A stretch of 64,000 nt of DNA from Lama guanicoe. Taxonomy: Eukaryota. The position numbers and the translations under genes are program-made. The notes under the pieces are model-generated. The model ran no database searches. It saw only the letters and a program-made list of their open reading frames with translations, and had not been told where the DNA came from. The stretch is from positions 97,479 through 161,478 of the forward strand of contig MU053369.1 of the NCBI GenBank assembly GCA_013239625.1, read 5' to 3'. Shown here in pieces: positions 4,953 to 55,626 of this stretch. Within the stretch, counting starts at the first letter, position 1. Every line of letters begins with the position of its first letter.

Positions 4953-5148
4953 AAATGACTGCATTGGAGGTAGTATGTCTCCACTGTTTCCTCATTTCCA
5001 ATATGTAACATGCACATCATTTATGATCTAGTGCAAATAATTCATCAAAGGCAACTGCCAAAAGAAACTATACTCACCTAGCTATCAACACTGAAGTCAA
5101 AACCTGTCAATTTTATATGCTGTTTAACAACACAACGGAAAAACTTAC

Positions 5149-5229
5149 ATAGGGAGTTGATTCCACAGAAATAAAATTATTTCTACTCTTTCAACACTTT
5201 TTCTTTTCTTTTCTATTTTTTTTGTTTTG
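5149..5229 (-). other. Candidate exon (81 nt) of an unidentified gene fragment
   Basis: Acceptor ttttattttcctttcaataag|, donor TAT|gtaagt; one frame is open (KTKKIEKKRKSVERVEIILFLWNQLP). Confidence 0.45.
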
Positions 5230-6427: not shown

Positions 6428-6462
6428 TGTGTGTGTGTGTGTGTGTGCACGTGTGTGTGTGT
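6428..6462 (+). repeat. (GT)n microsatellite
   Basis: Interrupted TG run. Confidence 0.95.
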
Positions 6463-7429: not shown

Positions 7430-9470
7430 CCGAATCTTCCTTTCTAAATTTCAGTTTTAAGCATTTAAATATATAATAGCAAAAAATTCTCACTTACAAA
7501 ATTGACAAAAACATAAACAATAATCAGGAATAAATTCAAAAATAATGCCCATGTTCTAAATGGAGAAACTTCAGGACTGTACTGAGGGGTAAAGTAAGAG
7601 GTGTGAATGTAGAGACATCAACAAACTGCATGGAGGAAAGCAGTTTTGTAAAAATGTAAGTTCTCATTAGAATAATTCAAAAGTTACTAAAAAATCCCAT
7701 GAGAACTCCAATCTGATTTTTTTTTAACTTGAACAAAATATTTTGGAATTCTTCAGGAATAATCAAGTCATAATAATAGAAAAGAAAATTTGGGATGGAA
7801 GAAAAAAATCAAAAAAATTCAGACTGCCAATTATTAAATAAATTTTTACAATATGTAAGATATGCTGCTGGTGCAAGAAAGGCAGATTGACAGAAGGGAA
7901 CCATGAGCTCAAAAAAAGACTGTAGTGTACATAAGTATTTTGTACAGGTGGGATTTCAAATCAAAGAGAAAAGTATGACTTCAATAATTGTCCTGGGACA
8001 ATCAGAGAACCACCTGGAAAGAATAAATTCTATTCCACTCATAATGACCACAAGATAAATTACAGACCGTGATGTAAATATTAAAAAGTACTAATAACAG
8101 CAAATACAACACTTTCCTTTTATTAACTCAACTTACCCTTACATTAACAAGTACTATTATCATCTCCATCTTAGAGATAAAAAAGAACCTACAGAGGAGA
8201 TTTATTCCAGTATAAGAAAGTATTTTTAAGAATAATGTCAAAGATAAAACCCATAAGGAAGACATTTACTATCATAAGAATATTTTGAGACACAACAAAA
8301 ATAAAAATCCTCCTGAACAAAATGAAAGGCAAGAAATCACAAGAAAAAGCTGTGTGATACATGTTGATGAAGACAGGAAGTTAATGTTCATAACATACAA
8401 AGAGCTGTCACAAAGCAACAAGTAAGTCCCTCACTTAAATGTGTGCAAATGATAAAAGGAATCATTCATTTTAAAAAAGTCAAATGGCTAATGAGTGAAA
8501 AATGCTCAATACTTCACTGGTCATCAAATGCAAACTAAAACAATGAAAAGCACTTTTGCTCATCATATTGGCAAATATTTTTAAAAGATATTCTAGCTAG
8601 TGTCCATCTTTGAGAGAACAAACTGTGAGCGATCTTTTTGGAGGACATGTCAATGGATATGTAAACTCTGAAAAACGTACGTACACACTGACTCAACACC
8701 ACTTCTAGGAATCGTTTCCTCTAGGAAAAAAAAAATTCAGTCCAGAAGGATGTACCCATCAGGGCATTTACACAGCACTGTTTACAATGGTGGGAAGAAA
8801 AACTGAAGTGTAATCATATCCAGCAATGGAGAATTGGTTACGTAAGTAATTGTGCATCTTTTCATTCCCCAATGGAGAAGGAATTTCTAGAGTCACTTGA
8901 AAGGAGTCTGTGATGAATGTAAATGTCACATCCAGGGATTAAATTTCCAGAAGCCTTAACTAAAGGAATACTCATACAAGATCACAGGAATGTCTGTACA
9001 AGAAGGATGCCAGTCAAACATCCTTTCTGACAGTGGAAAATGGAGAAAACTTAACTGTCCACCATCAAGACAATGATGCGGTAAATCACGGCGAGCTGCG
9101 AGCACTGAGGGAGCCGGCGTTTCGCCGTGGTCCAGGGCCATGTCCACAGCATTCTCTCACAAATGGTGTGCGTGACAAGACACCACATCTGCACATCAGG
9201 AGACCCCTCCACTATATCTGAAAAGACCAGGTGAGTCTGGAGTGGGAGGACGTCTATGATATACATCTGAGTGAATAAAGCGAGCTGCAGATAAACATAT
9301 AGTATGGTCTTATTTTTAAATAAAGCATATAAACACACACATAAACATAGAAATTGCATATGTGTGTATATCTGTATGTCAGAGGCATAACGGTCATGAA
9401 ATATATATACCAAATTTTCAACAACTTTTACTCAGGAAATAAAGGGAAGGGAGGTAGGGCCTTCCTGTAC
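7430..9470 (+). mobile_element. Highly diverged L1M fragments (boundaries approximate)
   Basis: A-rich + strand with ORF2 remnants (caaatggctaatgag, gactcaacaccacttctagga, cagcactgtttacaat). Confidence 0.6.
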
Positions 9471-30700: not shown

Positions 30701-31009
30701 CTTCCGCCGGTCACCTCAGAAGGCACTGGATTCTCACAAAGGAGGACCAGGAGAAGGGACTAAAGGATCTCCCATGGTCTGAGCTTTGAAGGGCCCGAGG
30801 TCTGGGGGAGCTCCTAGTTAGCTGACACTCCTGCCAGTGAGCAGATGAGGATGGACTTCCGCCGGTCACCTCAGAAGGCACTGGATTCTCACAAAGGAGG
30901 ACCAGGAGAAGGGACTAAAGGATCTCCCATGGTCTGAGCTTTGAAGGGCCCGAGGTCTGGGGGAGCTCCTAGTTAGCTGACACTCCTGCCAGTGAGCAGA
31001 TGAGGATGG
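30701..31009. repeat. Exact 154-bp tandem duplication
   Basis: 30701-30854 and 30856-31009 (cttccgccggtcacc...gcagatgaggatgg) appear identical, separated by a single A. Confidence 0.95.
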
Positions 31010-34000
31010 GGGATCCCAGGCAAGGCTGCTCTCGCTCCGACCCCTGGTCTCTCGGGAGCCACGGGAAAGGCCTGTTTCCTTGGCACAGCCCGGCCATCAC
31101 AGATCCCAGCCTGCATTTGCCAACTCAGACAGCCTAGACTCCTACTTGCGACTCTTACTTCTGTTCTGTTCGCCCCCCAGAATGTGATGGACTCTTTCAG
31201 AAAGTCTGGCCTGTCTCAAGCGAGACCAAGTCAGTGAAGGATGAAGTGTCCACATTTGGACCAGAGCATGAAAGGAGAAACAAGGCCTCATGGCCAGCAT
31301 GACGGTGGTGGCCAAACCCTTCCCCTGGGTGAGATGAACCAGGGTGGGGGTGAGAATGCAAGGTCCCTTCACGACTGACAGGGGTGTTGTAGACTCACTA
31401 CAGCAAAATAACGACATGGCCGTCAGTGGTGGAATCAGCTGCAACAGACACAGAGTCAGATATTAACTGCCAAAAAGGGGTAAAAGTAAAGGCCGGCGCA
31501 GGGAGGCCTGCACGGCTGCTGAGGCAAACCACAGACCCGGCTCTTAATGCCCACTGGCTGAAGCAGAGTGGAAGCTATGGTCCCCTTTAGCGGTCCCTGT
31601 GTCCACCAGATCCAAGTGAACCAGCTACTTAGGAGAAGGCCATGTTGTCCTGATACTTAGAAAAACCAGCCTCATAAAGGGAACAAAAGAGTGGCATGTA
31701 TTTTAGACCCGCTCCTGCCCCTCTATGAATGCAAAGTAAAGTAAGTGGCACTGGGAAAGTGAATGCAAAAATAAAAACAAAAAACAAAAAACCGGTGACT
31801 GCTTCCTCCAACAGCGTCACCTGCAGCTGCTCACCCCCGAGCCGGCCACTTCCTCACCAGTGACCGCCGGCCAGGAAGCGCCGTCACGCACGTCACACAG
31901 CGACAGCCAGGAACCGTGTGCCGAGCACGTTTGTGTAAAAGCCAGAATCAAGCAAGGTGCTGCAGATTTTGACTTTCCAACTTTAAATAATCCATGAAAA
32001 AAATCCCTAAGTCACCGCCTAAATCAATTCGCATCTCACTTCTTCAAAACAAATAAACAAAATTAGTAAGAGCGCATTTGTCACCAAATATAAGGAGGAA
32101 CAAACAGGTTCCTCAAAGCAAGGACTTTAACAGGTATCAAACTCCAGTGGATGATGCACTAACAGAGCAAAAATTCCAAAAAACTAGAAAATAAGAAGAT
32201 GACTAGGATAATATATGGATCAAGGCAACTGTTAAGTTTTTACTTTTTAAAGCGATGGAGACAGCACAGAGGGCGATCTGGCTATTTCCAATGCAGGGTG
32301 TGCACAGCCCACATTTTCAGACCCAACAACATGCTCACAGGGTGGTATAAGAGAAAAAGGAAAAGAGGAACAGCGAAAATTAGAAACACACGAGAACAGA
32401 AATAACTGAGAGCATTTACAAGAATTTACGAGAGTGTGATGAGGACAGGGACGTGGGGACGGTGAGACCCACCCTCACCTCCTGATCCAGGGAAGGCAGG
32501 GGCCTGAGGGGAGCGGCGCTAACGGGGGACCCAACGTGGTCAGCGCCCCAAACCAAAACTTCACCTAGATGCGTGTAGACAACTTTTGAGCTACAAAATG
32601 TGGTCGCATTACAAGCTGGACAATTTTACTCACTCCCACCAAGAGAAACAGGGGAGAATTAGGCTCTGCTCCTGCACCAAAGCATTGTTTTAACAATTAA
32701 TGACTGTGGAATAGTAAAAGCAACAATGGAGTAAAAGTGACTGGAAGAGAACGTGCTTGACCCAAGCTCACTGGCCGCGTTAACTCACTGACGTTCAGAT
32801 GCTGGCTAAGCCCTTATGGTACCAAAACAGACAGACCCACAAGGAGGGAGGTTTAATGCGCTGCTGTATTTTGATGCCTGGAGCCATACCTGGTACACGA
32901 GGTTCTGGGTAAACAATGGTGACAGTGTCAACCACTATGGGCTAAGCACACATCCAGCTACTCCGCCAAATCCCAAGGACAGACTTCAAAAGGCAAAAAC
33001 AAGCTGGAATTCCCTGGTGGGTCTGCAGTCTCAGAGCCAAACAGTTGCTGAGCAAAAATGTCACCAGTGTCTCCTATGACAAAAGAGGAGGCACTGGCCT
33101 GGGGGCTGGGGCAGGAATCCGGGCTTCCACTGCTCACTCACCAGTCTGTCCAGGGGGAGAAGGTGGTCCCTGCTTACGTTGCACCGATGCACCTACATTG
33201 ACTAACGCCTGGGGGCTCAGCAGGAGGTGACAGGTGAGGTGAACGGAGCCAGCCTGCCAGTGGCCGGAGCTGGCAGCTGTGCCCTCAGCTTTGCCCAGGC
33301 CACTAAACCTGCCAGCTCATCTACAAGGAGCAGAAGGGGAGTGCGGGCGCATAGATCACAGGGCCCTGCGAGGACAAGTACAGATCATGGCCACGACATG
33401 CCTCTCCCCTTCCTGAAGCCGCAGTGGCATGTCCGGGGAGGAAGTGAAAATTAATCCAGAGCCCGCCAGGCACCACATGCAGGTGGGACACAGTTCCCCT
33501 GTGCCTGTCATTCACAGGACTGGTGTGGACTTTCTTTTTATCAATTCTCTGGCATCTTCTCCTCCAACTTACCAACAACCAGAAAGTAAAATCTGACGTT
33601 AGAATCACAGAGCACCCCCTCCACAGCGGGCCCGGCAGCACGTGCCATGTCCTCCAACCATCACCTGTGGTACCGCCATGAGCGCTCTCCAGACTCAAGG
33701 CCTGAGGCCGTAGGCTGGGGGGACACAGCTCCCCTCAATCTCCCGAGTAAAGGGGGACCACTCATCGGCAAAGACATCTCACCCTCTTCTGCCCGAGGGA
33801 CAACTTGAAAGATACACAGGGAAACATAGTAGAGGGTGAGGAGGTAGGCAGCCCAGAAGAGCTCATCTGCACTTCCAAGGCAGAGTGGGGCCTTTGACCT
33901 AATCACAGGGACAAAGTGAGGATGAATTTTTCCCTGCTCTGTCCCATTCTCCGTGACACGCATTTCCCTTTGTAAGGAGCTATTTTGGAAGCACCTGTCA

Positions 34001-34181
34001 GTGTTTCTGATGTCCTAACTTGGCATGGCGGCTTTCAGGCAGGGTAGAGGGCCTGAGCCTTGCTGGTGCTGGGCCTGGGAGGCAGGAGACACCGGCTCCA
34101 CCCCCAGCTCAACCAACTCCTCATTCTGCATCTCAGGATTCAGAGTCTCATTTATAAGCAAAGGGATGAAACTGTCCAAGG

Positions 34182-34494
34182 ACAGGCTGTCCAACAGGAA
34201 TGAAATGAGAGTCATGTAAATAACATTTCCCAGTTGCCACGTTTAAAAAGTAAAAAAAAAAGAAAAAAATACTAGAAACTGATTTTAAGAACAGATCTTA
34301 CTTATTCTACTGTATGTAAAACACTATCATTTTGACATGTAATCAATATAGAAAGTAACAAGATAGTTTAAATTCTTTTTACTAGACAAGTTTCAGCGTC
34401 TGATGTGCATTTGACCTACAGCACATCTCAGCTCAGACCAGCCTCCTCCCCTGCGCTTCTAGCATCAGTGGCTGTGGCTACTCTATTGGACAGC
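34182..34494. mobile_element. MER33/MER3-like hAT-Charlie non-autonomous DNA transposon
   Basis: Terminal inverted repeats gctgtccaacag ... ctattggacagc around an AT-rich core containing tttgacatgtaatcaatat. Confidence 0.75.
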
Positions 34495-34732
34495 AACTCC
34501 AGGGGTCCCACCAAGTGTTCTGGCTGAAAAGGGGGAGTAAGTGTCCACACTAACCCTAAAAGGATCTCTCTGAAACAAAGGCGGATTCACTTTTAAACGT
34601 CTGAAAACCGGCGGGCTGCACCTCTTTCCCGCCTTGGCTACAAGACAGCCCTCCTCCATGCTGATCCCATTCAGGACATAGGGAAGCAACCTTTCACACA
34701 GCCAGGGTGGCCCGGCCTCCAGGTTGACTTGC

Positions 34733-35305
34733 CTGCTGTCTGTGTCCAGTCCCACGAAGTCCTCCTTCTCAAACAGGATGTAGAGGAAGGGAGTCTTCTC
34801 CTGAGAATTTTGGGGGTCCCCATCCAGGCACTTGGACTTGGGCAAGATGAAGAGTGACTCAGTGAAGTCCTCGATCCTCTTCTCCACCACCCTGCAGTCC
34901 TTGTAGATTGAAGGCCACGTCAGCGCGCGGCTGCTCGGCCACCTCCCCATACAGCACAGAGACAAAGAGCTGAGAGTCGTAGAGCGTGGTGCCATACAGC
35001 TCCTCTGGGCGTGGAGCTTCTAGAAGGTCTTGGCCAAGAGGCAGTCGGTAATGATGACAAGGCCCACGACATTGCGGTGGGTCTGGAAGTCACTCCATCC
35101 ATTCTCGGGTGCATAGTGATACCTATAGTAGATACAGGGTGCCCACTGGGAGCCGCACGGGCTGATCTGGCTCACCAAGGAGATTCCATTATAGATGCAA
35201 AAGAAATTCTCCTCTAAGATGATCCCCACGGGTTGGACCACAACGGGAAGAGTCTGGTGGTCCTCAGCACACTGCACGTAGTCAGGGGCGCTCATGTTGC
35301 AGGCC
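34733..35305 (-). pseudogene. TRAPPC9: Unprocessed pseudogenic copy of the first coding exon of TRAPPC9 (NIBP, TRAPPII subunit)
   Basis: ATG at 35295 opens [32 protein letters not shown]...[19 protein letters not shown], and the exon ends [14 protein letters not shown]...[14 protein letters not shown]. This matches the TRAPPC9 N-terminus as I recall it ([24 protein letters not shown]...[12 protein letters not shown]). Acceptor tctcccctctcggcag| lies 10 nt before the ATG; donor-like CAG|gcaagt at 34732. Lesions: TAG at 35020-35022, a 1-bp and a ~5-bp deletion (frameshift then restoration), and in-frame losses of ~3 and ~12 nt. Confidence 0.95.
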
Positions 35306-35732
35306 CTGCCGAGAGGGGAGAGTGAACCGATGTACATACTGTGCTGTGGGCTTCGGGCCTCACTGGGTTGCAGCAACCTGGTGTGTACCAGACAGAAGGC
35401 AAGGGAAGCCCAAGAAAATCGGAGGTAAGTTTGTTCTCAGCGTCTGCACATGGATACTGTAGTTCAGATCACATTACCCAGCTTTTGGTCTAGGCTTCCA
35501 TCCCCTGCTGAAAAGGGTCATTTCTTGTTTTCTGATTCCAAGCACCTAGGCAGGCCCTGATGCAAAGTCAGTGCTCAAAACTGCTGAATAAAGGAATGAA
35601 TAAAGGAACTGCTTCCCCACCTCTCAGCAGAGCAGGATATAAAGAACCATAGTGGGATCAAAAGATCTGGATTTCAACTCAAATTTATTTGAACTCCTAA
35701 GGTGCAGAATAATGGGTAAGAAAACTTGCTTT

Positions 35733-35947
35733 GGGGAGGAGGGTACAGTTCAGTGGTAGAGCACGTGCTTAGCATGTATGAGGACCTTGGCTCAATCCTC
35801 AGTACCTCATTTTAAAAAATGAAACAAATAAGTAAACCTAATTACCCCCCTCAAAAAATATTTTTTCAATTCAAAATTTTAAAAAAAAAAACACCCTGCA
35901 ATTGACACAACATTGTAAACTTGACTATACAAAAATTTAAAAAAAAA
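35733..35947 (+). mobile_element. tRNA-Ala-derived camelid-type SINE followed by a short L1 3' terminus
   Basis: ggggaggagggtacagttcagtggtagagcacgtgcttagcatg...taagtaaacctaattacccc, A-tail, then aattgacacaacattgtaaacttgactatac and a second A-tail. Confidence 0.8.
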
Positions 35948-38082
35948 TCCTTGCCTTACAAGACTATATCTGGATTATGGAAGTTTGCAAATGTAAAATG
36001 CCTAGGGTACCACCTGCATAAGAAGAAGGAACTGTACAAATGTACTATCCCTCATTTATGAGCTATTTTTCCTTTGGGGAGATTATAAGTTCTCAGAGAT
36101 ATTTTTCTCATATTAAAAAAAAAAAAGAAAGCATTACCTGATTCTCCATACTGCTGAAGAATCAGATAACCCTACGAAAGCATCTGACCCACAGAGTTTA
36201 TTCAATAAATGTTTGTTGAATGAATGAATAAACAAGCAAAGTGAATGCTGCTCCCTGCCACAGACCATCATAATGGTACTGCTTGGAAATGCCAAGCCCA
36301 CGTTCCACCCGACTCTACACTAACCACGTGGGTGACCTGGGCAGGCCTGTGTGCTTCTCTAAACACCAGTTTATTCATAAATAGAAATGAGGGCAATAAC
36401 ACAAACATAAAAGGGTTAGTGTGTCACGAATTAATAGTACCCCAACTTTGGAAGATGGAACTATTAAAGAAAATTGGGCAAAGAGCCCATAGGCCCTCTC
36501 CGTATTATCTCTTACAACTACATGGGAATCTACATTACATCTAAAAATAAAAAGTCTAATTTTTTAAAGAGGCTATTGAGGTTAAATGAGCTCACTGTCT
36601 CAAATAAGGAACACACAGTACAAATAAGCAATGTGCAGCCCATGAAATACACTCAGTATATATTCCCACTGAACCCACTGGTCCCTCCAACTTCAGAGCA
36701 CGAGGAAGTGTCCTCGTGGTCAGAGGCCACTGCACCTGAAGCTAACAAAGCTAATGGTCCCCACTTTCAATAGCCCATGCAATCACACTAGGTCTAACTT
36801 TGTATTTGTAATTTTTTTCTTTTTATTAAATAGAAATCCCCAATTGCATAGCCTTCAGGTCACCAAAATCTGACCACAGAGATCATGATGGCAACCCTCC
36901 TTGGTGAAACAATAAAATGAAAAGCCATTTCCACAAGACCTGTGTGTAAATCTACTAGGGAACTTCATCCTGGACTGAGAGGAAGAGGACTGGGGAGGAG
37001 GGGGCAATCTGAGGCACACAGACCCATGGGCCACCTGTCCCACGATGGACATTACACTCAACCCTCACCCTCCAGGAACTTCAAAATACACACGACATAG
37101 TGTACAATATATATATATATATTTTTTAAAGAAATCCCTGACTCTCTAGCAGGTCTTTTATCTACCGAGACACAAATGGCTTATGTATATAATGTTTCAC
37201 AAAAGCCTTAAAATATTATCACGCCAATTTGACACATTAGGAAACTAGGGAGAGAGGTTTATCACATTGTGCAAGATTAGAGAGAGGTCACCTCAGACAC
37301 CGTATTTAAACCCAAGCCTTTGCTCCAGTGCTCACACTAGAAAGTGTGACATACTGCCCCCTTCCTGCCCACTCCCTGCAATAAATCTCTGAAGAGTCTT
37401 TTCTGTGCCACGTGGAATCACAATCACGTCAATTTACCACAAAGAGCTATGTGACTCCTTGGAGGACGTGTCAAAATCTAAAGGGTTGGGATGGGAGGAG
37501 AGATTTGCATTTTCTGTTTCTCAAAGGAAACATGGCTTTAAAAGAAACTGAAAAGCACTTATCTAGTCTAAGCCCTCATTGTGCAGAGAAGGAAACAGAG
37601 TCTCTGAAGAGATGAGGAAAGGGACTTATTAACAAATATCGCCTCAGGGCAGCACCAAGCCAGCCCTGGGCCCTTCTGGGGGCGGATCTGGGAGGCCCAG
37701 GAGAATGAGTGTTAGAGAAAGAAAGAGAAGAAGCATAAAAGGCCTGTCTCTACACCACCATACCATGAAATTCCACCAAATTATCCAGTATGGGTGCAGC
37801 CAATATTAAGGTGGGCTAAACAGGTTATAGAAACCTGGAATTCTCAACCATAGTGGAAATTCCAACATTTACTGTGCTTGTTTCCCAGTTCAAACATCAA
37901 CTCAGTGGGCACTCTGTACCAGGGACTACACGAGGCCTGGAGTTCTCCCAAATACAGATCTCTATTATCACGTGTGCAAACCACACACAGGCCCACCAGA
38001 AGAAAAACGCCCACACATAAGATGGAACTACTGAAACAGAAAAGAGCCAACCAGCATATATTGCTAGCAAAAACGGTGCTGC

Positions 38083-38345
38083 TAGAAATAGACTCATGGA
38101 CATAGAAAGCAAACTGTGGTTAGCAGGCAGGAAAGGGAGGATTAACAGATACACATTAATAAATATAAAATAAATGACAAGGACCTACTATATAGCACAG
38201 GGTACTATATTCAATTTCTTGTAATGAGTTGTACTAAAAACATTCTGAAAGACATGTATATACATATGCATATGCTTATAACTGAATCTCTGCTGTACAT
38301 CTGAAGCTAACATGGTAAATTGACTACACTTCAATAAAAAATAAT
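38083..38345 (+). mobile_element. 5'-truncated L1 3' end
   Basis: agaaatagactcatggacatagaaagcaaact...aaggacctactatatagcacaggg...ttgactacacttcaataaaaa. Confidence 0.85.
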
Positions 38346-39139
38346 TTTATATAATAAGTAAAAATAAAAGCAACGCCATAAAAAAAAGTAAAAGTACACG
38401 GTAATCCCCTTAGCTGTAGGTGGTGGAGAACTCTGCAAGCACCAAGTCCACTCGAACACTCCAGCACTGGCTGTCACTCATTCTAACCATCAGAGAATCA
38501 CTTGGCTTCTAGGAGGTTACTTAATTGCCATCCTCCCCAGATCTATGTAAAGGTTACTTCCACCCAGGCAGTGACTCCTGAAGGACAAGAATCATGTATG
38601 AACACAGTCTCAAATTCAGAACAGAACCTGACAACAATTAGGCTCTGGAGTCTGTGTTTAGCGAGTGTGGAATCTCAGTGATTCCAGCTCTTACACCTTG
38701 CCTTCCCATCCCACCCTTCACGATATGGCCCTTATGACCAGTTCTCCTGGGACTGGGGCCACGGAACCCATTTACAGGACTGGAAGAATCTCATCATGTA
38801 AACCATCCCCCAGATTATCATCAAGGGTCACCTGCATTTCAGGGATCAGTAATCCCAGAAGCTTTGCAGTTCAGGCAGCTGAGGGATTTTTATATCAGCT
38901 CTGTCTTCTACTGTGACTGCCTGGGTGACATCAGACAAGGAATTCTCAAAAGCCTGAGCTTTTCCTTTCAGGAATAATCTAATTAACAAATCTCATTGAC
39001 CATTTAACAAATGTGATGTGAGGATCAATGATTTACAAAGGAGTACAACATTCACTAGGTTGTGGATTTAGAATCAGAGAAAAATCATTTGAGAAAGATT
39101 GACAGAATGCAGCTTTAATGCAAATTTAAGTATTCTTAC

Positions 39140-39249
39140 CTTTCAGTAAATCATCTTCTCCTACTTATCACTTCACCCAAGTTTAAAAGATGTTTGAGAA
39201 TAGGGATGAGTGTGCCAGCAATCTGTGACCCAATAACCTAAAATGTCAC
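39140..39249 (-). other. Candidate exon (110 nt), probably non-coding or decayed
   Basis: Acceptor cccctgtttttcctag|G, strong donor AAG|gtaaga. Confidence 0.45.
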
Positions 39250-39400
39250 CTAGGAAAAACAGGGGAGTAACACATTTTTAAAAAGCATAGTGAGGATGGC
39301 GGGGGAACATCCCCCAACTCCAGACTAAGAAGCTCTGAGTAATAGCTTTCCTGCCTGCCTGGGGCATCAGCTGATGTGAAAATCCACCCAGAAAACTCAC

Positions 39401-39471
39401 TGTCCAGCAGCTCTTCCGTGACACAGCCTACACTTTCTCAGGATTAAGAATTGCGTCCAGTAACCACTTGG
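39401..39471 (-). other. Candidate exon (71 nt) just downstream of the GC-rich array
   Basis: Long polypyrimidine acceptor ctctcttgttctcctttgtctttattattcag|, donor ACA|gtgagt. Confidence 0.45.
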
Positions 39472-39551
39472 CTGAATAATAAAGACAAAGGAGAACAAGA
39501 GAGTTCTGCCCCTCCCCAGGGGTGAGCCCAGACCTTGGGCTGCATGCACTG

Positions 39552-41677
39552 CGCCCACCTCCCAGGAGAAGGATAAACTGGAGAAGGNNNNNNNNNNNNN
39601 NNNNNNNNNNNNNNNNNNNNNNNNNNNNNNNNNNNNNNNNNNNNGGACAGCCCCTCGCTGCCTTGGCAGCTGCCTCCGACCCCTCAGCACATCCTGCCCA
39701 CCTCCGGTGGCTAAGCTGTCAGGGAAACTGTGCTTTGCGACCTGGGGCAACAGAGGCTGCCCCCACGCCAAGCTGCGGAAGAGATGGGAGCTAAACCACC
39801 AGCTCCCAAGCAACAGGCTCCATACCCCCACCAACACCGCACCGCCCCCGCACCCTACCGCACCCCTGGGGCAATATGACCCGGAGAAGGGTGACCTGGG
39901 AATGAGAGGCAGCAGAAGCCGCCCCCATGTTAGGCCTCCAGAGAGATAGGAGCTTATCCTCCAGTTCGCCAGGGGCAGCCCGCCTCTCCTCTCCACCCTC
40001 TGATCTCACCGAGCCCACCTCCCAGGAGCAACCTGACCGGGTGTGGGGTGTCAGGCGAAACTTGGGCGGGAGGGGCCGTCCCCAGGCCAGGTCAGGGGAG
40101 AGGAGAAGTGGCCCCATTAGGCGGGGATGCTGGCCGTGGCAGCTGCCTCTGTCCCTCGACCGCATCGCGCCCGCCTCCCAGGAGCAAGCTGACCTGGAGA
40201 CGGACCTCCGGCTTCTTGGGCAGCAGAGGACGCCCCCAGGTTTGGCCGCGGGGAAGAGGAGAGCAAATTGACAGGCCCCGCGCTGCAGGTCCTCTACCTC
40301 TGCAGTCGCCACCCCCCGCACCTTAAAGGCACCGCCTAGGGCGCCCCTCCCCCAGCAGGCTGAATGGGACAGGTGTGTCTGGTGACCTAGGGCAGGAGAG
40401 GCCACTCCCACACCAGGCCATAGGGGAGAAGGGAGCCAATTCACCAGCTCCCCAAGGCAGCCCCCTACCCCCGCAGCAGCCACCATTTTTGCCCCTTGAC
40501 CTCATGGTGGTCTCCTCTAAGGAGCAGGCTGACCTGGAGATTGACGTCCGGCGAACTTGGGACAACAGGGACCGCCCCCAGGACAAACCATGGGGGGAAA
40601 TGGGAGCAAATGGACTGGCTCCATAGGAAAACCTGCCACTGCTGCCACCAACCCCAACGTACCACGCCCGCTTCCCGGGATCAGGCCGACTAGGATACAC
40701 GTGTCTTGTAACCCAGGGCAACAGAAACCGCCCCCAGGACAAGCCGCGGGGAAGATGGGAGCAAATGGGCCCGCTCCCCCGCTGCAGGCCCCCGACCCCC
40801 GCCACCCCTGCACCCTGATTACCCTGCCTCCCGCCCCCAGCAGGCAAAGTGGGACAGGGGTGTCCCGGGACCTGGCGCAGCAGAGGCCGCCTGCAGGCCA
40901 CGCTACACAGACATGGGAGCTAGTCCACAGGCTCCCCCGGGGCAGCCTCCCTATCCCCGCAGCCATCACCTTACCAGCCCCCTGACCGCACCGCACCCAT
41001 CTCCCAGGAGCAAGCTCTCCTGGAGACAGACCTCAGGCAAATCTCCGGCGGCAGAGGTCGCCCCCAGGCCAGGCCGCGGGGGAGAGAAGAAATGGAGCAG
41101 CTACCTGGAACGGTCCCCCTCCCCCTGGCGCCGCCGCCGCCGCCTCCCAGGAGCAAGCTCACCTGGAGACCTGCGTCCCGCCTCTAGGACAGCGGAGGCC
41201 GCTCCCAGGCTCGCCGCGGGGGAGAGCGGAGCGAATTGACCGGCTTCCGCGCGGCAGCCCCCTTACCCCCGTGGGTCCCGCACCTTTTTGGCACCGTTCC
41301 CACTCCGCACTCAGCAAGCTGAGTGGGACAAGCGTGTCCAGCGACCTGGGGCAGCAGAGGCCGCTCCCACGCCCGGCAGCCGGGACAAGGCAGCTATTCC
41401 ACCAGTTCGCCAGGGGCAGCCCCGCTCCGCCCCACTGCCGCTGCCGCCGCCCCCTGACCTAACCACCCCACCTCCCAGGAGCAAGCTTACCTGGAGTCCA
41501 ACATCTGGCGAATCTCTGGCGGCCAAGACCCCCCCAGGCCAGGCTGCAGGGAAGAGAGGAAATCGACCGGCTTGCCCGGGCAGCCTCCCACCCGCCGCCG
41601 CCGCCGCCGCCGCCNNNNNNNNNNNNNNNNNNNNNNNNNNNNNNGAAATCGACCGGCTTGCCCGGGCAGCCTCCCAC

Positions 41678-41715
<38 letters not shown>
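39552..41715. repeat. GC-rich diverged tandem repeat (satellite-like), ~161-bp monomer, ~13 copies, ~485-bp trimer periodicity
   Basis: The anchor CCCAGGAGCAAGCTGACCTGGAG (and variants), followed by GGCAGCAGAGGCCGCCCCCAGG and a purine-rich tract, recurs at about 39568, 39710, 39871, 40028, 40184, 40355, 40524, 40681, 40840, 41010, 41153, 41314 and 41481. Confidence 0.9.
41592..41713 (+). repeat. (GCC)n trinucleotide tracts flanking an assembly gap
   Basis: Pure CGC/GCC runs at ~41592-41614 and ~41678-41713, with a 30-N gap at 41615-41644 between them. Confidence 0.9.
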
Positions 41716-41802
41716 CCAAACCATTCCACCAGCCTCGCAGGGTCACGCTGACTGCGAGGATGTGCACTTGCCTTCTGATCCTACCCAAGTGCCTGAGCAC
41801 CT

Positions 41803-41963
41803 CCCTGCACCCCTACACTCCCTGCACTTCTGCACTCCCGGCACTTCTGCACCCCTACACCCCCGCATCCCCTGAACTGCCTGCGCCCTCCACAGCCCCT
41901 GCACCCCTGCTACCACTTACACTTTTGCACTGCCTACACTCCTGCACCCCTGCATGTCCCACA
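41803..41963 (+). repeat. Degenerate 8-9-bp tandem repeat (CCCTGCAC)n; minus strand GTGCAGGG
   Basis: cctgcacccctacactccctgcacttctgcactcccggcacttctgcacccctacac...cctgcacccctgca. Confidence 0.75.
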
Positions 41964-42839
41964 CACCACCTCTTGGGCCTGTGGCAGAGTCTCTGCTGTT
42001 AGACCAATGCACAGGAATTCACATCTTTGCCAGTATATGATGCATCAGTGGACGTCTGTGGTTGGCTGCAGGAAGGTACATGTTCCTGGTCACTAGCCTG
42101 GGCCACTAGAGTGGTCTCTGTGAGGTCATCCAGGATGGGCTCAGAGATGCTGTTTTCCGGGAAGAGAGGAGTTGAAACCGGTCTTGAGGGCAGAGCTGTG
42201 CTCACCAGGCCGTCCACGTTTCATGTTTTACACAGGGCTTGGGGAAGTGAAATGGACCCGGCCAAGTAAGACCGGCATTTTGTGCACCTACCTCAGTCCT
42301 GGGCTCTGAAGCAAACCGACTGGCTCCCACCCTCAGGGCCCATTTTGGGCACCTGAATGTTCCCTTGGAGGCATCCCATCAGTTCTCAGGAAGAAGTCTG
42401 GCTGCTTCCACCTCATGGCCCTCCCTCCCACTGTACTGGCCTCAGGAAGTTTCCTTATTTGGGGAAGAAGGCAGCCCACCCCCTACCCCACCCCTCAGCG
42501 TGCTCTCACTCAGGCTGGTGCTCTCTCTGCCCTTCAGAGTCTGGAAAGCCATCCCTCTTCAGTTATGTCCCTTCTGAGATGGACTTGCTTCCAATCAATT
42601 CTAGGCGAGGATGCACCATGGAATGCACTGGGTAAGAGAACCAAAATAAATACTTTCTTCTGTGAGGTTTTCTGTTTATCTACTGGGGCTGGGCTGCGTG
42701 TAGTTTGCTACAGCTATTCGTGCGAGAGGTTAAAGCCGCCTGTGTGTCCTTGTTTTCATCTCCCTGCTGTCTTTGGGTTTTCCCTAGACACTCCTGAGAC
42801 CTTTACTTCTTTTAATTTTATTCCTGTCATTACACAGAG

Positions 42840-43510
42840 GCCCTACTGTCATGGAGGTAAGGTGTTGGGGGAGCGGGACAGAGCAGGGCATCTGTAGTCC
42901 TGTGATTAGTTCTCATTGAGCCTGTGCCCTGAGCTGTGACTTCCACAAGTGTGTCTCTTTCCCCCCACCCCAATTTGGGTGACACAGAAGGTATTTCCCT
43001 TACGCCAGGTTGGTTAGGCTCTGGTAAAATAATTTCTCATTAAAAAAACAAACAAACAAAAACAACTTCCCCCAATGAAACAGAATGTTCTGGGTGTATT
43101 TCAATACAGTTATTTTCTCCTCTCCAGGCAGGAAGCATGAGGAGTTATCCTCTGACCTTCATTCTGAGAACAGGACACAGTCCTGGAGGTAAAATGCATG
43201 AAAAAGAGCATGGGGCCCCTCTGACTGGCCCCCTGGAGTTGTCACACTCAGACTTCCCCACGCTGAGCCTCCCGCTGGCCTCAGGGACCTGTTAAATCTG
43301 CCTGCCCCCGGGATTCTTACAAAAGCAGGTTCTGCCCTGGGAGCTGTGACTCTCCAAGCCCGCCCGATTGCCTCTCTGGTTTGGGAGCAGCTTTTCCCCA
43401 GTTTTCTGGGATCTAAGAAGAGCAGTGGGTTTGCAGCTCCCTCAGATCTGGTGTTGTTTTCAGGACAGAAGATGCAACTTCTGAGCTCCACATGAGCTGG
43501 ACCAGAGGCT
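42840..43510 (-). mobile_element. Old L1 5'-region-like fragment
   Basis: tagtcctgtgattag...gagcctgtgccctgagctgtgacttccacaagtg; family assignment from memory only. Confidence 0.45.
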
Positions 43511-46344
43511 GGAAGCCTCCCCTCCTCTGCCTCCATGCAATCAGTGGCTGTGGTTCTAGCCGAGTTTCTGAAGATGTGGATTTAAACACACACATCCCAG
43601 CCCCCACAGGAGCACACAGTCCCATAAATCCCCCTAGTTTCCACTGGTAACTATGGAGCCGATGGGGACACGGGTTTCGGGACCACAGAGGCCTGACTGC
43701 ACGACTTGCTCCGTGGCCTATTAAGGTGGTTGTTCTGGGCCTTGTCTGAAGTGGCTTGCTTACCGCACCTGGTACGTGGGAAACACAAAATAAGTACTAG
43801 AACCTTCACTATTTCTCCCTCCAGGGCCTTCAAACGTAGAAAGTAATAAGTGAACTCAGACGGCATAGTCACCACAATGAGGTCCGACCAGCCTGGCTCT
43901 CCTGAGTGATGGGCACTGACTTTCACCTTAATTCGGAACAGTAGGGGACCCGCCTACCTCTAACTGGGCCTCTCCCCACACCGGGCACGCCCTCAGCTGA
44001 GACGGGGCCAGCTCCCCCATTGAGGTGTGTGCTGGTGGCTTCAGTGTGACCTGGCCCTGCCTGGACATGAACCTGCAGTGAGTGAGGTGGAGGGTCGGAT
44101 GGAGGGGGGTCCCTTCTGGGGTGGCAGGGGGCCTGGGAGCACCCCACCCGGCCTGGTGCCTGGGGCTCCCTAACACCTCCCACAGCTCCTGGGTTGGCTC
44201 CGGTCCTGGCCACTCCACACACCCTCCCAGTATCTTTGATTTAAGTCCCTTTTTTGCTTTTATCAGCGAGAAGTGGCTTCTGTTGCTTGTTCAGTGAAAC
44301 AGTACATCGGGAAACCAGACTACTTCTAACATCAGTAAAATACCAACCTCGGTCAGCTCGCCGGGCAGACCGTGCAGCACAAAGGCCTGAACAGGGCTAA
44401 AGGGTCCTCATCATCTGTCTTCAGAGATGCAGAAGCTGGTGGTTCAGTAAAACCTCAGGGAGGGATTGAGGAATCCAAAGCTGGTTGGTTTCAAAGGCTA
44501 ACTGGTCAGACCAGACCCCTGATCTGTGGTCAGAAGCCTGGCTCAACATCACGCAGACTCAGCACCCTAAGTGCCGGGTGGGGCTGGTGGTGTTCCCTTT
44601 GCAGGCTGTCATTGGGGATTAACTGTAGCCCCTTAAATGCAGCAGAGATTCCAGCCCCCTTAGCCCCCACCCTGAGTGTTCCATGACACAAATCCCGGGA
44701 GTGTTTAATTTTCATCTTTGTTTAGGAGGATGAAGGTGGGGCAAGAGGAGACATAAATTCATACTGACTGACACAAGGTCACAGCCAGCACCTCCTCCTC
44801 GGAGAGCTATGTGCTCCACAGTAGTGGCTCGGGGCTGGGCGGAGACCCTCCGCTGGTCCCAGAGGGACTCACTCCTCTGGCCACAACTGACGGGTTGGAC
44901 AACAGATCCAGAGGGAGACAGAGCATCTTTCCTGGGAATTTGGAACTCACACACAGAAATCAAGTTCATTCATCTGGGGATTGGTGAGGGGGAAGGGCGG
45001 TGGTTGGAAATCAAATGAAACCAGAGCATGAGAGAAAGTTAGAAGTGAAAGAGAGAGAGACAGAGAGACTGAGCTTGTGAGAGCAAATAGTCAGAAAGAA
45101 GGCAAACAATCAGGGGACAGAGGAGTTCCAGCTCCTGACTGTCTAGTCTGTCCCAGCCCATCAACGACCCCGTGGGATGGTTAATATCATTCCAGTTTTG
45201 CAGATTAAGAAACGGGCTGAAAGAGGTGGGGGCTGGGTTTGGGTGCACAGTTAATTTAAGTGCCACTGGACCCCTCACTTCCCATTGCCTGAAGGCACCG
45301 TAATCCCTACTGGGACCTCTGCAGTACCCTGACCACTCAGCACCCTGATCAAAGGGCCCCTGCGGGAGTGGGAACCCCTCTGAGTGTGGAGAATTCCCTG
45401 CACTGACATGTCATGCATCAGCAGGCTACTGCTCACCCCAGGTTAACATCTCCCCAGCTGTGCAGTCTCCCGGCCCGCTTCCCTCCCTGCCAGGCAACCC
45501 CGACCTTACCACCGAGTGTACTGCAGGAATTCAGGCACAGGGATGCCCAAAGCAACACGAGCCCACCGGCTATACAAACAGCAGACTCCCAGACCCACCT
45601 GGGTTCCGAGGGGACAGTAGGCGTCCTCACCGTTCATGTGTCTAAGACAATCTTCTTCTTCAGCTGGAGGTTATAGAGAAAAATAAAAGTCAAAAACATA
45701 GTTCGGTGAGGAATTCCTCCTAGGACCTGACTCCAGAGTCTACAACCAGGTGTACCTACCCCCCGGACTTGGGGTGAAAGTGGATTATTGATCAGCACAA
45801 CCCCTGGTGGCCCAGCTCCTCAGCTTGGCTGCCCAGAGGGGGCTGGGGGAATGGGTAAGGCCAGGGCACTCAGGAAAAGCACAGAGGACATGACCACTCC
45901 CCTCTGCACTCGTAAACCCTTCCCCAAATCTCAAGGCATCGGACAGAGAGCAGCCACCACAATAAGGAGATGCTCCCATCTCTTCACTAACTCCTGTCGG
46001 TTCACTTACATGCTGAGCATCCACTGGGTCCCAGGACATGATACACAGGATGGCCAATGGGACAGGCTTGGTCCTTCCCCCTGGAACCTGTTCAATCTGA
46101 TGAAAGAATGATCACTCATAAAGAGTTTCTCAAAATTATACAGAGACCAAAGACCAACTGCAGAGTGAACCAAATTTAAAAATATATATGAAGATCCCCC
46201 AGTCTCCCCATCTAAGGTTAACAGCATAAAGCAAAAAATTCTTGCCTTTGATCACCAAGGAAGTTGTCACACCCTCTCAGGTGGAAAGGAGAGTTATTCT
46301 TTGAGCAGAACACAGAAGTGCTCCATCGGATTGGACCAGGGCAT

Positions 46345-48420
46345 GTACATTCATTCAGCAAATGTGTATAAGCTCCTACTACGTAGGGGAATTTCCTAAC
46401 TAGACCCGTTTCCAAGGCTCTCGGGCTTTATCAGTCAACAAAATAGACATGACTCCCCATCACTGGGGGCTCAGAGTTTTAGCAGAGGAAACAGGCAGCA
46501 TGTTGGGGGTAGCAAGAGTTTGGAAAAATTTTTAAAAAAAGAGTGATATGAGCAAACTCGGGTGATGGCGGCGGGGTGGGAGTCAGGCAGGAGGGAATAA
46601 GGCAATCCTGGCAGATCTCACGGAGTAACGAACTTGAAGCAGAATAGATCCGGAGGAAGAAGGAAGAGCCGGAGCCAGAGGCCCCCAGAGTGATGGGGAG
46701 AGTGTGGGCGGAGAGGCAGAGCATGCCGGATCCTGAGGCCTTTGTGACGACTTTGGCCCCTAATGAAATGGTGACCCGTTTAATGAGTTTTGAGGGGAGA
46801 AGTGATGTAGTCCAACTTATGCTTTTGTGTTTGTGTTTTCTGGGGGGAGGTAATTTATTTATTTTAATGAAGGTGCTGGGGATTGAACCCAGGATCTCAT
46901 GCATGCTAAGCATGTGCCCTACCACTGAGCTACACCCACCCCCCAATGTATGTTTTTACAGGCTCCCTCTGACTCGCTGTGGATGAGAGATTGTAGGAAA
47001 GCAAAGATGGAAACAGGAAGCTATTGGTGTCCAGGAAGGGCTGAAGGTGGCCCTTAGGAGGGCGGGGAGCAGGGAGCAGGTGGTTAATGAAGACAGAGTA
47101 TCCAGAATTTTCTAACAAGCTGGATTTGCTGTCTGTGTGTTAAAGAAAGAGAAAGGACATGGTTCCAAAATCTGGACCTGGAAAATGGGAGGGATGTCCT
47201 CTCCATCCACAGGGGATGGGACAAGGTGGGGCTGAGCAGATGGAAAGGGGCTGGTATCAGCTCAGTTCTTCAATGTCATGGTTAAGGGATGTAATACATA
47301 TTGCCACAGAAATGCCTAATAGATAGAGGAGTCTGTTTTCTTTTTCTTTTTAACATTTAAAAAATATAATTAAACATATTAATTGTATTATGTGAATGAT
47401 TTGGGAATTTTGTTTCATGCCAAGTTATATGTTATATATAGCCAAATGGAGCATATATCAGAAAAGGGGAGAAATAATGGCTTTCACATAAGCTGACTGT
47501 CCGTAACGTAGGTAAAATTTCAATAAAACCAGTTTTCAGTGCAAAAACCTCATCTCGGTGTTACATAAAAGTAAATGAAAAAGGACTATGTTGATGCATT
47601 ATTATTTCATATTACATAATAGCCCCAAACAAACACACTGTTTAACTCTGAGGCTTGTAGAAACACTATTTGCTTTATTCACATAAATACAGAAATGCAG
47701 AAAGGTTCTAAGGTAGAATAAGCATCTTAGTGGAAATAATACAGATTTGAGCATTTTACATGATACATATATTTACTGATTCAAAATTTGGAAAAGTAAT
47801 TACATAATAGAACATATGTATGAATGTGAAAGCAAGATGAATGAAAGAAAAAGAATGTGAGCCTCAGGGATAAAGGTCCAGATGGAAAGGGCAAATCAGG
47901 GAGTTTTGGAGAAATCGAGAAATTGATGGCATGCCAATTTCCAAGGCTGGGTTGCTTCCACCAATGGAATAGCAGAGAGAGAGAGGAGAGGCCCAGTAAC
48001 CAACCCTGGGGCACACCCACAGTATATGTTTGGGAAAAAAACAGGAGACATTGGCAAAGGACCAGCCAGCAGGCCAAAAGCAGAAAGACAGAGAGATGGG
48101 CTGGAGGTTGAGTGAAGCAGGAACACGGGGTAGGAGGGGTGGACGAGCTGGGTCAAATGCTGCTGAGGGGCCACGCATGATGAGGACTCAAAATTGACCA
48201 CTATATTTAGCTACATGGGGTCACTGATGGCCTTGACAGGGCAGTTTCCATAGAGCAAGGGATAAGGCGAAAAGCCAGAGTGGGTGTAAAAAGGGATGGC
48301 TCAAGAGAAGATGCAGACAGTGGGTTTAAACAACTCCTTAAAGATTTGCTGCAAAGACACAGGGTGGCAATTGGTGGGGGTGAGTTAGGGTCAAGGAGTG
48401 CTGTTCGTTTCTTTTAAGAG
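46345..48420 (-). mobile_element. Fragmented L2 LINE with a nested SINE and an AT-rich insert (~47340-47860)
   Basis: Starts cattcattcagcaaatgt (reversed L2 3' end); later ttagctacatggggtcactgatggccttgacagggcagtttc. Confidence 0.65.
46823..46944 (-). mobile_element. tRNA-Ala-derived camelid-type SINE inserted in L2
   Basis: Reverse complement reads gggggtgggtgtagctcagtggtagggcacatgcttagcatgcatgagatcctgggttcaatccccagcacc plus tail. Confidence 0.88.
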
Positions 48421-53462: not shown

Positions 53463-54329
53463 TGTTCAGAGCTGTTTCAGTCTCTGTCACAGCTGGAGGG
53501 TGCAAACCCCAACCTCCAGAAAGAGGGGCCAGGCCCCCCACCCGCCAGGTGGTGTTGCCTTTGTTGGAGAACAGTGATCTTTGGGTTAGATATTTTGCGG
53601 CTCTCTCTAAAACTTGCTTTGACTTAAGTTTGCATCCTAGTCACCAGTTCCAGGGCAACAGAAAAAGCATACCCTACATCCCTTTGCACTCAAATCTTCC
53701 CAAAAGAGCAAATATGTGCTCATGAAAATATCAGCTGCTCTTCTAAGGCCCCCTAAATTCCCAGCAGTGTGGGCGGTGCACTCTTGATCAGGGACAGGAG
53801 GAGAGGGACCAGCGGTCCTCTGGCAGGGTTGGCCCGGTGCGGCAGCTGCGCTGTGGGTGCGTGGTGGGGAGGGCCATGCAGGGAATGCTGTTTGAGGGGC
53901 CTCTGTGCACGCCTGCATTATGGTCTGAGGTTTCATACAAAGTCTCCAGGCATCGTAACTGGTCACATACAGCCCCCACCATCGGGCTGGAACCACCAGG
54001 AGCTCAGTATCTGTAACAGGGACAGTGCCTGGTGTAGGGAGAGATCATGGGACACTCCGGGGGCAGAGGCGGAGGTGCTGGGGAAGGCAGGGGATGCAGT
54101 GAAGGGTGGAGGAAGCAGGGTCCCTTGCTTGGGGGTGAGAGTTCTTGGGGAAACCACAGAGCATGGCACACAGCATCCCCACCCCATACCCCAAATTCCT
54201 AGCCCCGCCAACACAAGGGCTTCTCTGAACCCTCTCACCGTGGCTTGCCTGTAAGACCGCACCCAACCCGGCATCTGGCACCCCAGCCCTACCTCCCCTC
54301 TTGGGACAGATCCCGTCTTCTTGGAAACT

Positions 54330-55230
54330 GCCCATCAGCGCGAATTCAAGGCCGGCAGCGGGCCTGGCGGATTTGCACTTCAGGTGCCCTAACTGGCCAG
54401 CTGTGTGTGCCTGGGTTCAGTCCTCTCTCTTGCCCAACGGCAGCCTGGGTCCACGTCCGGTGCAAGCGGAGGCCGCGGAGCCCAGGCAGAGCCACGCATA
54501 CGGACAGGTGAGGGTGCCCCCGCCCCGCTGCCCCGCTGCCCCGCTGCCCCGCCCACTAGTGGCGGCACTGCCCCAGCCTCCGGCCGGCGCCACCTGCAGG
54601 TCAGGACTTCCACGTAGCCGCGCCCGCCCCGGGCCCGCCCAGCTGCCCCATAAGCCTCCCCCCAGCCCCCGTCCTGGCCGCGCCCTGGCTCCCATTGGCT
54701 CCGCAAGTTCTGCCCTCGCACGTCTAGCCTCGGAAGGAGGCACGACGCAAGCGCAGGGGAGGGCCCCGCGGCGTTGCCATGGCTACAGGCGCCGCGCCCC
54801 GCAAGGCCAGCGTGCACTTCTGGGGCGGGGAGCGGGCTCCGGAAATGTGTAGCTGCTAGGGACAATGGCTGTGCTTGCTGCTGGGGCTGGCGGCTTGCTC
54901 TGCCTGGCGACTAGTTCTGGCCTGGTCAGTCGGCGGCAGACATCTTGTCTGGGGCGGCGTCCCACAGATGGTAAACCTACGGCCGCGCAGTTGGCGGGGC
55001 CAGTGGACATGGACCGGGGTGGGATCTGGGTTGGTGTGGCGGCCGGGGAGGGGCTGTGGTGCCGGGGAGCGGGTTGGGGCGGGGGGGGACAGGGCTGGGA
55101 CACAGCCTCGGGCTTTCCTCCCCCTCGGGCTCTGGGGCTGGGACCGCGATTCCGGGTAGCCCTGAGTGGCGGCGGCCTCCCAGAACCCCCGGGAAGGGCA
55201 AGCGGAGGACCCGTCTTTTATGAAGCGGGG
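54330..55230. promoter_or_regulatory. CpG island / promoter carried with the POFUT2 copy
   Basis: Very GC- and CpG-rich. Motif matches: CTCF-like CCTGCAGGTGGCGC (minus, ~54587-54600), inverted CCAAT (ATTGG ~54694), RFX X-box-like GTTGCCATGGCTAC (54773-54786), GC box GGGGCGGGG (~54822-54830) and ETS-like CCGGAA (~54839), all just upstream of the ATG. Confidence 0.75.
54865..54970 (+). pseudogene. POFUT2: POFUT2 pseudogene exon 1 (frameshifted signal-peptide exon)
   Basis: Shifted frames read LCLLLG... and [18 protein letters not shown], matching POFUT2 ...FLLLGAV...[20 protein letters not shown]. Donor ATG|gtaaac at 54971. ATG to donor is 106 nt, versus about 131 nt expected from the human protein, so the POFUT2 frame is lost. 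Confidence 0.9.
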
Positions 55231-55626
55231 CCTTACCCGTGTTTTGAAGAGCCCCAGAATCAGATGTTGGAATGGGGTGGTTTATCAGCCTTGTTTATCT
55301 GCAGGGAAATTTCAGTTCCATCCAGATTTTGGCTCCCTCGGTAAACCTCAGGAATAAGACAAGGGTCAGTGCCGATTAGCAGTTATCTAGGGCTTGACTC
55401 AAAATAGACTGTGCGGGCTGTAGGGATGGTAGATGGGCCCTCCCTCTCAAGGTTGGCAGTCTTCTGGGATTAGAGGCCCCAGTGGAGGATTACATTCTCA
55501 TCTGCAGTAATGGAGGTTGTGGGAAACATTAACACAGGGAAGGTAGGGGTGTGGCTGCTGTAAATCATTAAAGAAACCAGGACCCTTGCCTGGCTCTTGT
55601 GTAGGAGAGTCTCGCCTAGGGTAGGG

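Follow-up and report, generated by a model that had tools for sequence, protein, structure and literature searches.

Lineage-specific amplification of partial gene copies is well known from primate duplicon families such as NPIP/morpheus, NBPF, LRRC37, TBC1D3 and GOLGA8, and macrosatellites such as D4Z4/DUX4, DXZ4 and CT47 are made of kilobase head-to-tail units, each with a transcription unit and CpG-rich sequence. In our study, a stretch of 64,000 nucleotides of the guanaco (Lama guanicoe) genome (contig MU053369.1, positions 97,479 to 161,478 of the forward strand; called the window hereafter and numbered from its first letter) has been analysed, in which a decayed GC-rich tandem repeat, the array, lies beside a partial copy of the gene TRAPPC9. 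Like the primate duplicons, the amplified segment (the amplicon) is found in dozens of tandem and dispersed copies, carries exons of mixed origin and has internal tandem repeats that appear to be exonic. Unlike them, it is camelid-specific and joins the 5' part of TRAPPC9 to an unrelated array-bearing segment; moreover, its copies are 84-95% alike whereas parent and copy share only 76-79%, and no maintained open reading frame (ORF) or sign of selection was found. It also differs from the macrosatellites, as its unit of ~62 kb is far more diverged and forms clusters on many contigs or chromosomes, and the small GC-rich array has a fixed place inside this unit and does not itself form the repeating unit.

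For camelids, the main text of a 2026 paper on alpaca satellite DNA (PMC13751797) describes multi-megabase repeat blocks with fragmentary NEK10-like, ATF5, FMN2-like and ABHD17A-like copies and raises a regulatory or transcriptional role as possible. The guanaco amplicon resembles these pseudogene-rich blocks in holding many fragmentary copies of single genes in a camelid genome, whereas the alpaca blocks are reported in that text to be absent from Camelus and predicted proteins of the TRAPPC9-like kind are found in Camelus as well as in Vicugna. TRAPPC9 is not named in the main text of that paper, supplements aside. For a "TRAPPC9-like" orthogroup, PMC10568864 gives annotated copy numbers of 0 in the domesticated Bactrian, 4 in the Arabian and 8 in the wild Bactrian camel; this is the same gene family, represented there by an annotation copy count only, with no structure, array, amplicon or transcripts in that text. 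In the guanaco genome, at least 41 copies of TRAPPC9 exon 2 were found. A search of the literature on TRAPPC9 and camel yielded, as far as its listing shows, nothing but association studies, and no description of the amplicon, the array or the transcripts was found in the literature searched (supplements aside).

Our analysis points, with good but not full confidence, to two transcription units on the same strand in each amplicon unit, an old array having been exonised in the gene that starts upstream of it. The GC-rich repeat, old and decayed, would have been present before the camelid segment was amplified. The first unit, called the array gene here, would be a poorly conserved, probably non-coding multi-exon gene which starts upstream of the array (exons at 46.1, 45.6, 42.6 and 42.1 kb), crosses the array on the minus strand with some of the monomer GT/AG motifs spliced and others read through, and ends at or beyond the exon 39249-39140. 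The second unit would be a partial TRAPPC9 duplicate with exons 2, 3, 5 and 6, which in the two paralogs examined has kept a TRAPPC9-derived exon-1/promoter region of its own. In the window copy, a 16-kb deletion may have removed this exon-1 region, so that exons of the array gene now lie 3.8 kb upstream of a broken exon 2. The parts of the array gene in the window are as follows (a slash marks the splice point), including two candidate exons that the original prediction for this DNA had placed behind the array.

42510-46099, minus strand: span of the upstream exons of the array gene, 46099-46010 (donor CAT/GTAAGT), 45670-45512 and 42628-about 42510.
42023-42157, minus strand: exon upstream of the array, with the ATG at 42081 of P0122- and P0128-type models, an alternative acceptor ctgcag/ at 42064 and the donor GAT/GTGAAT at 42022.
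41491-41543, minus strand: 53-nt internal exon, with acceptor tccctgcag/ at 41544 and donor CAG/GTAAGC at 41490.
41020-41204, minus strand: array-internal exon of P0122-, P0128- and P0129-type models, starting at 41204 or 41183.
39534-40214, minus strand: array-terminal exon, starting at 40214 (P0122 type) or 39715 (P0124-P0127 and P0129 types).
39401-39471, minus strand: first candidate exon, with good acceptor and donor look-alikes, used by none of the eight models.
39140-39249, minus strand: second candidate exon, with acceptor cctag/ at 39250 used by models and donor AAG/GTAAGA at 39139 intact and of no known use.

The evidence for these exons comes from predicted RefSeq proteins, eight in number, from seven loci of two Camelus species (C. 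bactrianus and C. dromedarius). A minus-strand array frame of 236 amino acids (aa) matched the predicted protein P0121, whose cluster also contains P0122, annotated in Camelus bactrianus as "uncharacterized protein LOC141579336 isoform X1", and P0122 used as query returned six further predicted proteins from six loci of C. bactrianus and C. dromedarius. When mapped on the window, the protein segments coincide exactly with minus-strand intervals bounded by GT-AG. The 53-nt interval 41543-41491, which the original prediction had proposed as an exon from the pyrimidine tract ...ccctgcag/ ending at 41544 and the donor at 41490, is translated in seven of the eight proteins; it is read in two frames (PGLGG...MLDS and LAWGG...CWTP) with identical edges and is flanked by residues of other exons. 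It has the properties of a U2-type GT-AG exon, the products being predicted proteins and not sequenced RNAs. Joining the window intervals in silico gave 76 of 85 residues identical to the matching part of P0127 across two junctions, and eight paralogs aligned over all 118 residues with 100-107 identical. The models belong to clusters of up to 42 members, with many isoforms per locus.

The same models show how the remaining monomer motifs are treated. From the 53-nt exon they proceed to 41204 or 41183 and on to 41020, then to 40214 or 39715, or else directly to 39715; the corresponding junctions run from 41491 to 41204, 41183 or 39715 and from 41020 to 40214, 39715 or an exon outside the window. 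The exon 41204-41020 is translated straight across the donor motif at 41162 (...SPGELGPG...) and the array-terminal exon straight across that at 40193 (...SRSACSWE...), while the motif at 40533 is intronic. These three motifs, put forward as donors, are not used as such in the models, and the proposed junctions from 41491 and from 41163 to 39471 are not found in any model, nor is the exon 39471-39401. The array-terminal exon ends at the donor GAG/GTGGGC (39558) or AAG/GTCTGG (39533), from which the models join exon 39249 (junctions from 39559 or 39534). The exon 39249-39140 thus stands in part, its acceptor at 39250 being used in six of the eight models and its donor at 39139 in none known; a model stop codon lies 4-12 nt into it (C-termini ...VTF and ...GR). 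Each of the eight mapped models that contain array sequence starts within array exons or has further exons upstream of the array, and none of them begins at a monomer and splices to 39471. The idea of monomers as first exons is not borne out by these models, with their exons at 46.1, 45.6, 42.6 and 42.1 kb, and the (GGC)n tracts are intronic in them, between the exon 42157-42023 and the 53-nt exon. In one of the models, P0128 (LOC141579767), the array is spliced to one exon of 129 aa (L043-L044, C7593, within the 16-kb segment), of which there is another, partial copy close by; neither Pfam nor PDB gave a match for P0128.

All motifs named in the original prediction are present in the letters. 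These are the minus-strand donors CAG/GTAAGC at 41490, CAG/GTGAGC at 41162 and CAG/GTCAGC at 40533 and 40193, the acceptor ...tattattcag/ ending at 39472, and the candidate intervals 39471-39401 (followed by GTGAGT) and 39249-39140 (cctag before and GTAAGA after). They were scored by a simple position matrix, and the values are approximate. The edges of the 53-nt exon scored 10.8 (acceptor 41544) and 11.2 (donor 41490). The donors 41490 and 41162 fall within the best 7 and 12 of the 6,556 GT sites on both strands of the window, whereas the two GTCAGC donors reach the 96.9th percentile only, with 204 sites equal or better. On its minus strand the array holds 14 donor-like sites scoring at least 7, in comparison to 4.0 +/- 2.0 in 500 dinucleotide shuffles, none of which reached 14. 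The 14 sites go back to a few monomer motifs on a G-rich strand and are thus not independent events; on the C-rich plus strand, 14 acceptor-like sites are seen for the same compositional reason. As donors, 17 sites at or above the 95th percentile lie on the minus strand versus 2 on the plus strand.

Conservation was followed in 20 paralogs by scoring splice dinucleotides per site-copy. The AG at 41544 and the GT at 41490 are each kept in 19 of 20, the AG at 39250 and the AG at 41184 in 20/20, the GT at 41019 in 18/20 (by eye) and the AG at 41205 in 11/20, and the donor GT at 39139 is kept in 13 and lost in 7. The ORFs of the array gene have stops or frame shifts in many copies, and Pfam gave no family for the seven predicted proteins tried; the array gene is probably non-coding or without a conserved protein. 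The window copy itself has lost the donor near 42503 (GC), the acceptor 42158 (CGG), the donor 41019-41018 (GA) and the acceptor 41205 (GG), and its in-frame stop lies in the upstream exon 42628-about 42510, to which the lost GC donor belongs. The sites 42064, 42022, 41544, 41490, 39716, 39558, 39533, 39250, 39139 and 35306 are kept.

The array through which this gene runs has the following anatomy.

39546-41760, minus strand: decayed GC-rich tandem repeat (the array), with internal repeat families D1-D8 and a G-rich minus strand.
41592-41717, minus strand: (GGC)n tracts around a run of N, with CCG x12.7 at 41678-41715 (repeats D7 and D9).

By seed-and-extend repeat finding, the 2.2-kb array has a subunit spacing of 143-172 bp, a higher-order period of 470-486 bp and subunits 60-80% identical to one another; runs of N lie at 39588-39644 and 41615-41644. 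Its GC content is 0.64-0.70 and its CpG observed/expected ratio (o/e) varies from 0.34 to 0.69 across the array. The order and length of the monomers are the same in the 20 aligned paralogs, only L010, L021 and L026 having deletions, and the long homogeneous arrays of varying length between loci that mark a classical satellite are not seen. The label "satellite", under which the array had been described, is too strong for subunits of such low identity in fixed register, and it was not picked up by Tandem Repeats Finder. Between paralogs the arrays are 85-91% alike, in comparison to 60-80% for the monomers within one array. As the monomers are more diverged than the arrays that contain them, the tandem repeat should be older than the amplification. 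A transposable element was considered and rejected, as the array was not seen apart from the amplicon, in which its place is fixed. Directly upstream of the array, at 41801-41954, there is a degenerate 8/17-bp repeat (CTGCACCC-like, ~18 copies, 63-65% matches), which is intronic in the mapped models, after the exon 42157-42023.

The copies of the amplicon extend far beyond the array. Of the 481-bp higher-order unit, at least 28 near-full-length copies were found elsewhere in this 2.05-Gb genome, on other contigs and at 84-93% identity, and the same weaker internal repeats border each of them; window positions 34000-38522 match 23 further copies at 86-92%, and 41960-46400 match ~27 copies at 87-93%. 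The 20 paralogs fetched are colinear with the window over 38518-42600. On the same contig, a left neighbour unit matches window 4-38111 at 85-89% with an offset of ~62 kb, and exon-2 copies are spaced 60-68 kb apart on several contigs. The amplicon is camelid-specific, with a tandem unit of about 62 kb and dozens of copies. Segmental duplications are customarily recognised from 90% identity, and many of the amplicon copies fall below this value. By length (at least 1 kb) and by the inclusion of non-coding flanks the amplicon is nevertheless a segmental duplication, at least 46 kb of the window being repeated at 84-95% identity in at least 23-28 further copies. Within this 85-90% amplicon, a 155-bp unit stands twice in tandem at 30701-31009 (2.0 copies, 100% identical), so exact a match that it points to a very young duplication or to an error of assembly. 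Towards the other side, window 47084-53292 matches contig C2748 at 92-93% (a single candidate was scored) and is thus another duplicated stretch, outside the part of the amplicon followed here. Near the limit of the homology followed (about 46.4-47.4 kb), a transfer RNA (tRNA)-like Rfam match (46868-46939, minus strand, RF00005, 58 bits) lies beside a frame of the tRNA-derived short interspersed element (SINE) type and is taken as a SINE head; a similar 85-bp piece is present in the parental TRAPPC9 region, and Rfam gave no other match. A scan for bacterial promoters and terminators, of no bearing on a mammal, was negative.

The second unit is derived from TRAPPC9, and its window copy includes the following.

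34729-35305, minus strand: decayed first coding TRAPPC9 exon (exon 2, aa 1-196), with an in-frame TAG near 35019, frame shifts and the acceptor ggcag/ at 35306.
3124-26225, minus strand: further TRAPPC9 exon homologs, aa 212-244 at 26225-26127, aa 296-336 at 10123-10001 and aa 342-380 at 3240-3124.
38518-38522, no strand: junction of a roughly 16-kb deletion (or misassembly), in the window copy only; no other scored copy is contiguous across it.

The minus-strand TRAPPC9-like open frame begins after ...ggcag/ at 35306. Its stretch 35304-35020 has its best matches in short predicted "TRAPPC9-like" proteins of Camelus and Vicugna (73-85% identity), in comparison to about 66-72% for the true TRAPPC9 proteins of other mammals; searches of Pfam and PDB with the TRAPPC9-like frames gave no hit. 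The parental exon 2 lies at C55226:31088503-31089090 and is 96% identical to pig TRAPPC9, whereas the 41 copies reach 55-67%. Homology of the window to the parental locus is 76-79% and ends at about 38501. The exon homologs stand in gene order over 32 kb, and the introns between them are retained and share homology with the parental locus, so that this is an unprocessed partial duplicate and a processed (retro) pseudogene is rejected. Nor is it a functional TRAPPC9, as only aa 1-196, 212-244, 296-336 and 342-380 are represented and an in-frame stop and frame shifts are present. Between exon 2 and the intron-1 homology, ~1.6 kb at 35323-36934 has no counterpart in the parental locus and was either gained in the duplicon lineage or lost from the parent. 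No counterpart of the array and its flanks was found within 25 kb upstream of the parental exon 2, and on this ground the array was rejected as a TRAPPC9 promoter island.

Two paralogs, C7593 and C5985, carry 16.2 and 13.6 kb between the two sides of the window junction. In C7593 this segment extends the parental homology through a CpG-island stretch (C55226:31093010-31096107), and the first coding exons of the TRAPPC9-like proteins P0007, P0008, P0013, P0019 and P0123 lie within it in C7593 and C5985; these copies thus bring their own TRAPPC9-derived exon 1. The array had been supposed to feed the TRAPPC9-like exon, but no model joins the two, and exon 2 of C7593 and C5985 is fed from the TRAPPC9-derived exon-1 region. 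In the models P0013, P0018 and P0019, exon 2 of a unit is joined to exons of the preceding unit (near window 4800-10100), which makes the array intronic in them. The missing segment also holds a further exon of the array gene in paralogs. At 38405-38520 on the minus strand, there is a remnant of an exon used by P0005 and P0123 (...KRKVTSVKPSESLMVRKGDSQRW...) and spliced to 35306 in paralogs, and its 5' end is truncated by the deletion junction.

The CpG content bears on where transcription may start. Where a CpG island is taken as 200 bp or more with a GC content of 0.5 or higher and a CpG o/e of 0.6 or higher, most of the array, with o/e 0.34-0.50, is not a CpG island, and the mean o/e over 21 copies falls from 0.61 for 41760-41000 to 0.44 for 40999-39645. 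CpG transitions are 2.5-3.9 times as frequent as non-CpG ones in the array versus 3.8-4.3 times in the flanks, a crude estimate from the majority bases of 21 related copies, and this substitution pattern gives no clear sign that the array is protected from germline methylation. The plus-strand GC skew at 41001-42000 is -0.246, so that the minus strand is strongly G-skewed; a G-skewed sense strand is typical just downstream of CpG-island starts. Another CpG-island-like stretch at 54251-55250 (GC 0.70-0.72, o/e 0.68-0.72) lies outside the part matching the neighbouring unit and may be the promoter of an unrelated flanking gene.

A number of observations weigh against an array gene of this kind. 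The nine sites of the original prediction are intact in 162 of 180 site-copies, which equals the number predicted from a per-base background of 0.94-0.97 and therefore gives no clear purifying selection. Sites used by the models are intact in 192/199 site-copies (41205 excluded) versus 104/120 for unused sites, a difference that is no more than suggestive in copies that are related and not independent. The P0122-type frame requires an exon of 52 nt where the window has 53, so that a base differs or the model was adjusted, and the transcript support as a whole consists of computational RefSeq predictions from other camel assemblies. The part 41001-42000 has the composition of a CpG island (GC 0.68-0.73, o/e 0.66-0.79), the CpG o/e of the array 5' part is the highest in the window copy among the 21 aligned (0.77 versus a mean of 0.61), and a transcription start could also lie within the array. 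The deletion at 38520, too, could be a misassembly instead. A rival reading is that of inert duplicated DNA, in which the predicted proteins are annotation artefacts on GC-rich frames and the splice motifs are incidental to a G-rich repeat. Such an account agrees with ORFs that are repetitive, of low complexity, without a Pfam family and broken in many copies, with a G-rich strand that yields many donor look-alikes and with the neutral level of conservation; it is considered unlikely, as seven loci in two separately annotated species share GT-AG exon edges in two frames with many isoforms per locus. Annotation pipelines generally build alternative isoforms from aligned RNA. We infer that the predictions reflect real RNAs and that their ORFs are non-functional.

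The original prediction went further and proposed the array as a promoter with monomer first exons, joined to 39471, then from 39401 to 39249 and from 39140 to 35305, to give a chimeric TRAPPC9-like transcript. Its motifs exist, two of its donors rank in the top 0.2% of GT sites, and the CpG-island composition at 41001-42000 with a G-skewed sense strand would suit a promoter; in addition, with the TRAPPC9-derived exon-1 region deleted, exon 2 of the window copy would need a foreign promoter, and donor 39139 and acceptor 35306 are intact there. This scheme is nevertheless held to be very improbable, since none of the eight models follows its route from a monomer to 39471, 41162 and 40193 being read through, 40533 intronic and 39471-39401 unused, and since the (GGC)n tracts are intronic, the array shows no clear sign of germline protection and donor 39139 is lost in 7 of 20 paralogs. 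A narrower form, confined to the window copy, is given a small chance. Here array-gene transcripts, monomer-derived exons included, would splice from 39140 to 35305 into the promoter-less exon 2, making a non-coding chimeric RNA that possibly starts at the upstream start of the array gene or in the unusually CpG-rich 5' part of the array. Since the deletion places the exon 39249-39140 on the same strand 3.8 kb upstream of exon 2, this junction is structurally possible; donor 39139 (AAG/GTAAGA, score 10.9) and acceptor 35306 (ggcag/, score 9.9) are intact, and 35306 is used by TRAPPC9-like models in paralogs. On the other hand, the window copy has lost four array-gene splice sites and has an in-frame stop in an upstream exon, the stop codon in the exon 39249-39140 suggests that transcripts end nearby, and the deletion may be an assembly error. 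The two-unit arrangement, with the array exonised in a gene that starts upstream of it, is thus preferred.

This study has brought out a large camelid expansion, in which the first coding exon of TRAPPC9 occurs at least 41 times in ~62-kb units and for which the searched literature gives an annotation count only. It is best classed as a camelid duplicon in which an old tandem repeat has been exonised, the kind itself, duplicon-borne transcripts, being already known. For annotation, it is a warning that camelid "TRAPPC9-like" and "uncharacterized LOC" genes belong to one repeated unit, and for genetics, that the copies may confound the mapping of short reads near TRAPPC9 in association studies on camels. 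If true, the fusion in the window copy would be a freshly made chimeric gene inside an amplifying duplicon, in which the array gene is welded to a promoter-less TRAPPC9 fragment. On the preferred two-unit reading, a single monomer motif would serve as a working donor in some positions and as plain exon sequence in others, and a lineage-specific amplicon would be able to convert an old tandem repeat into exons.

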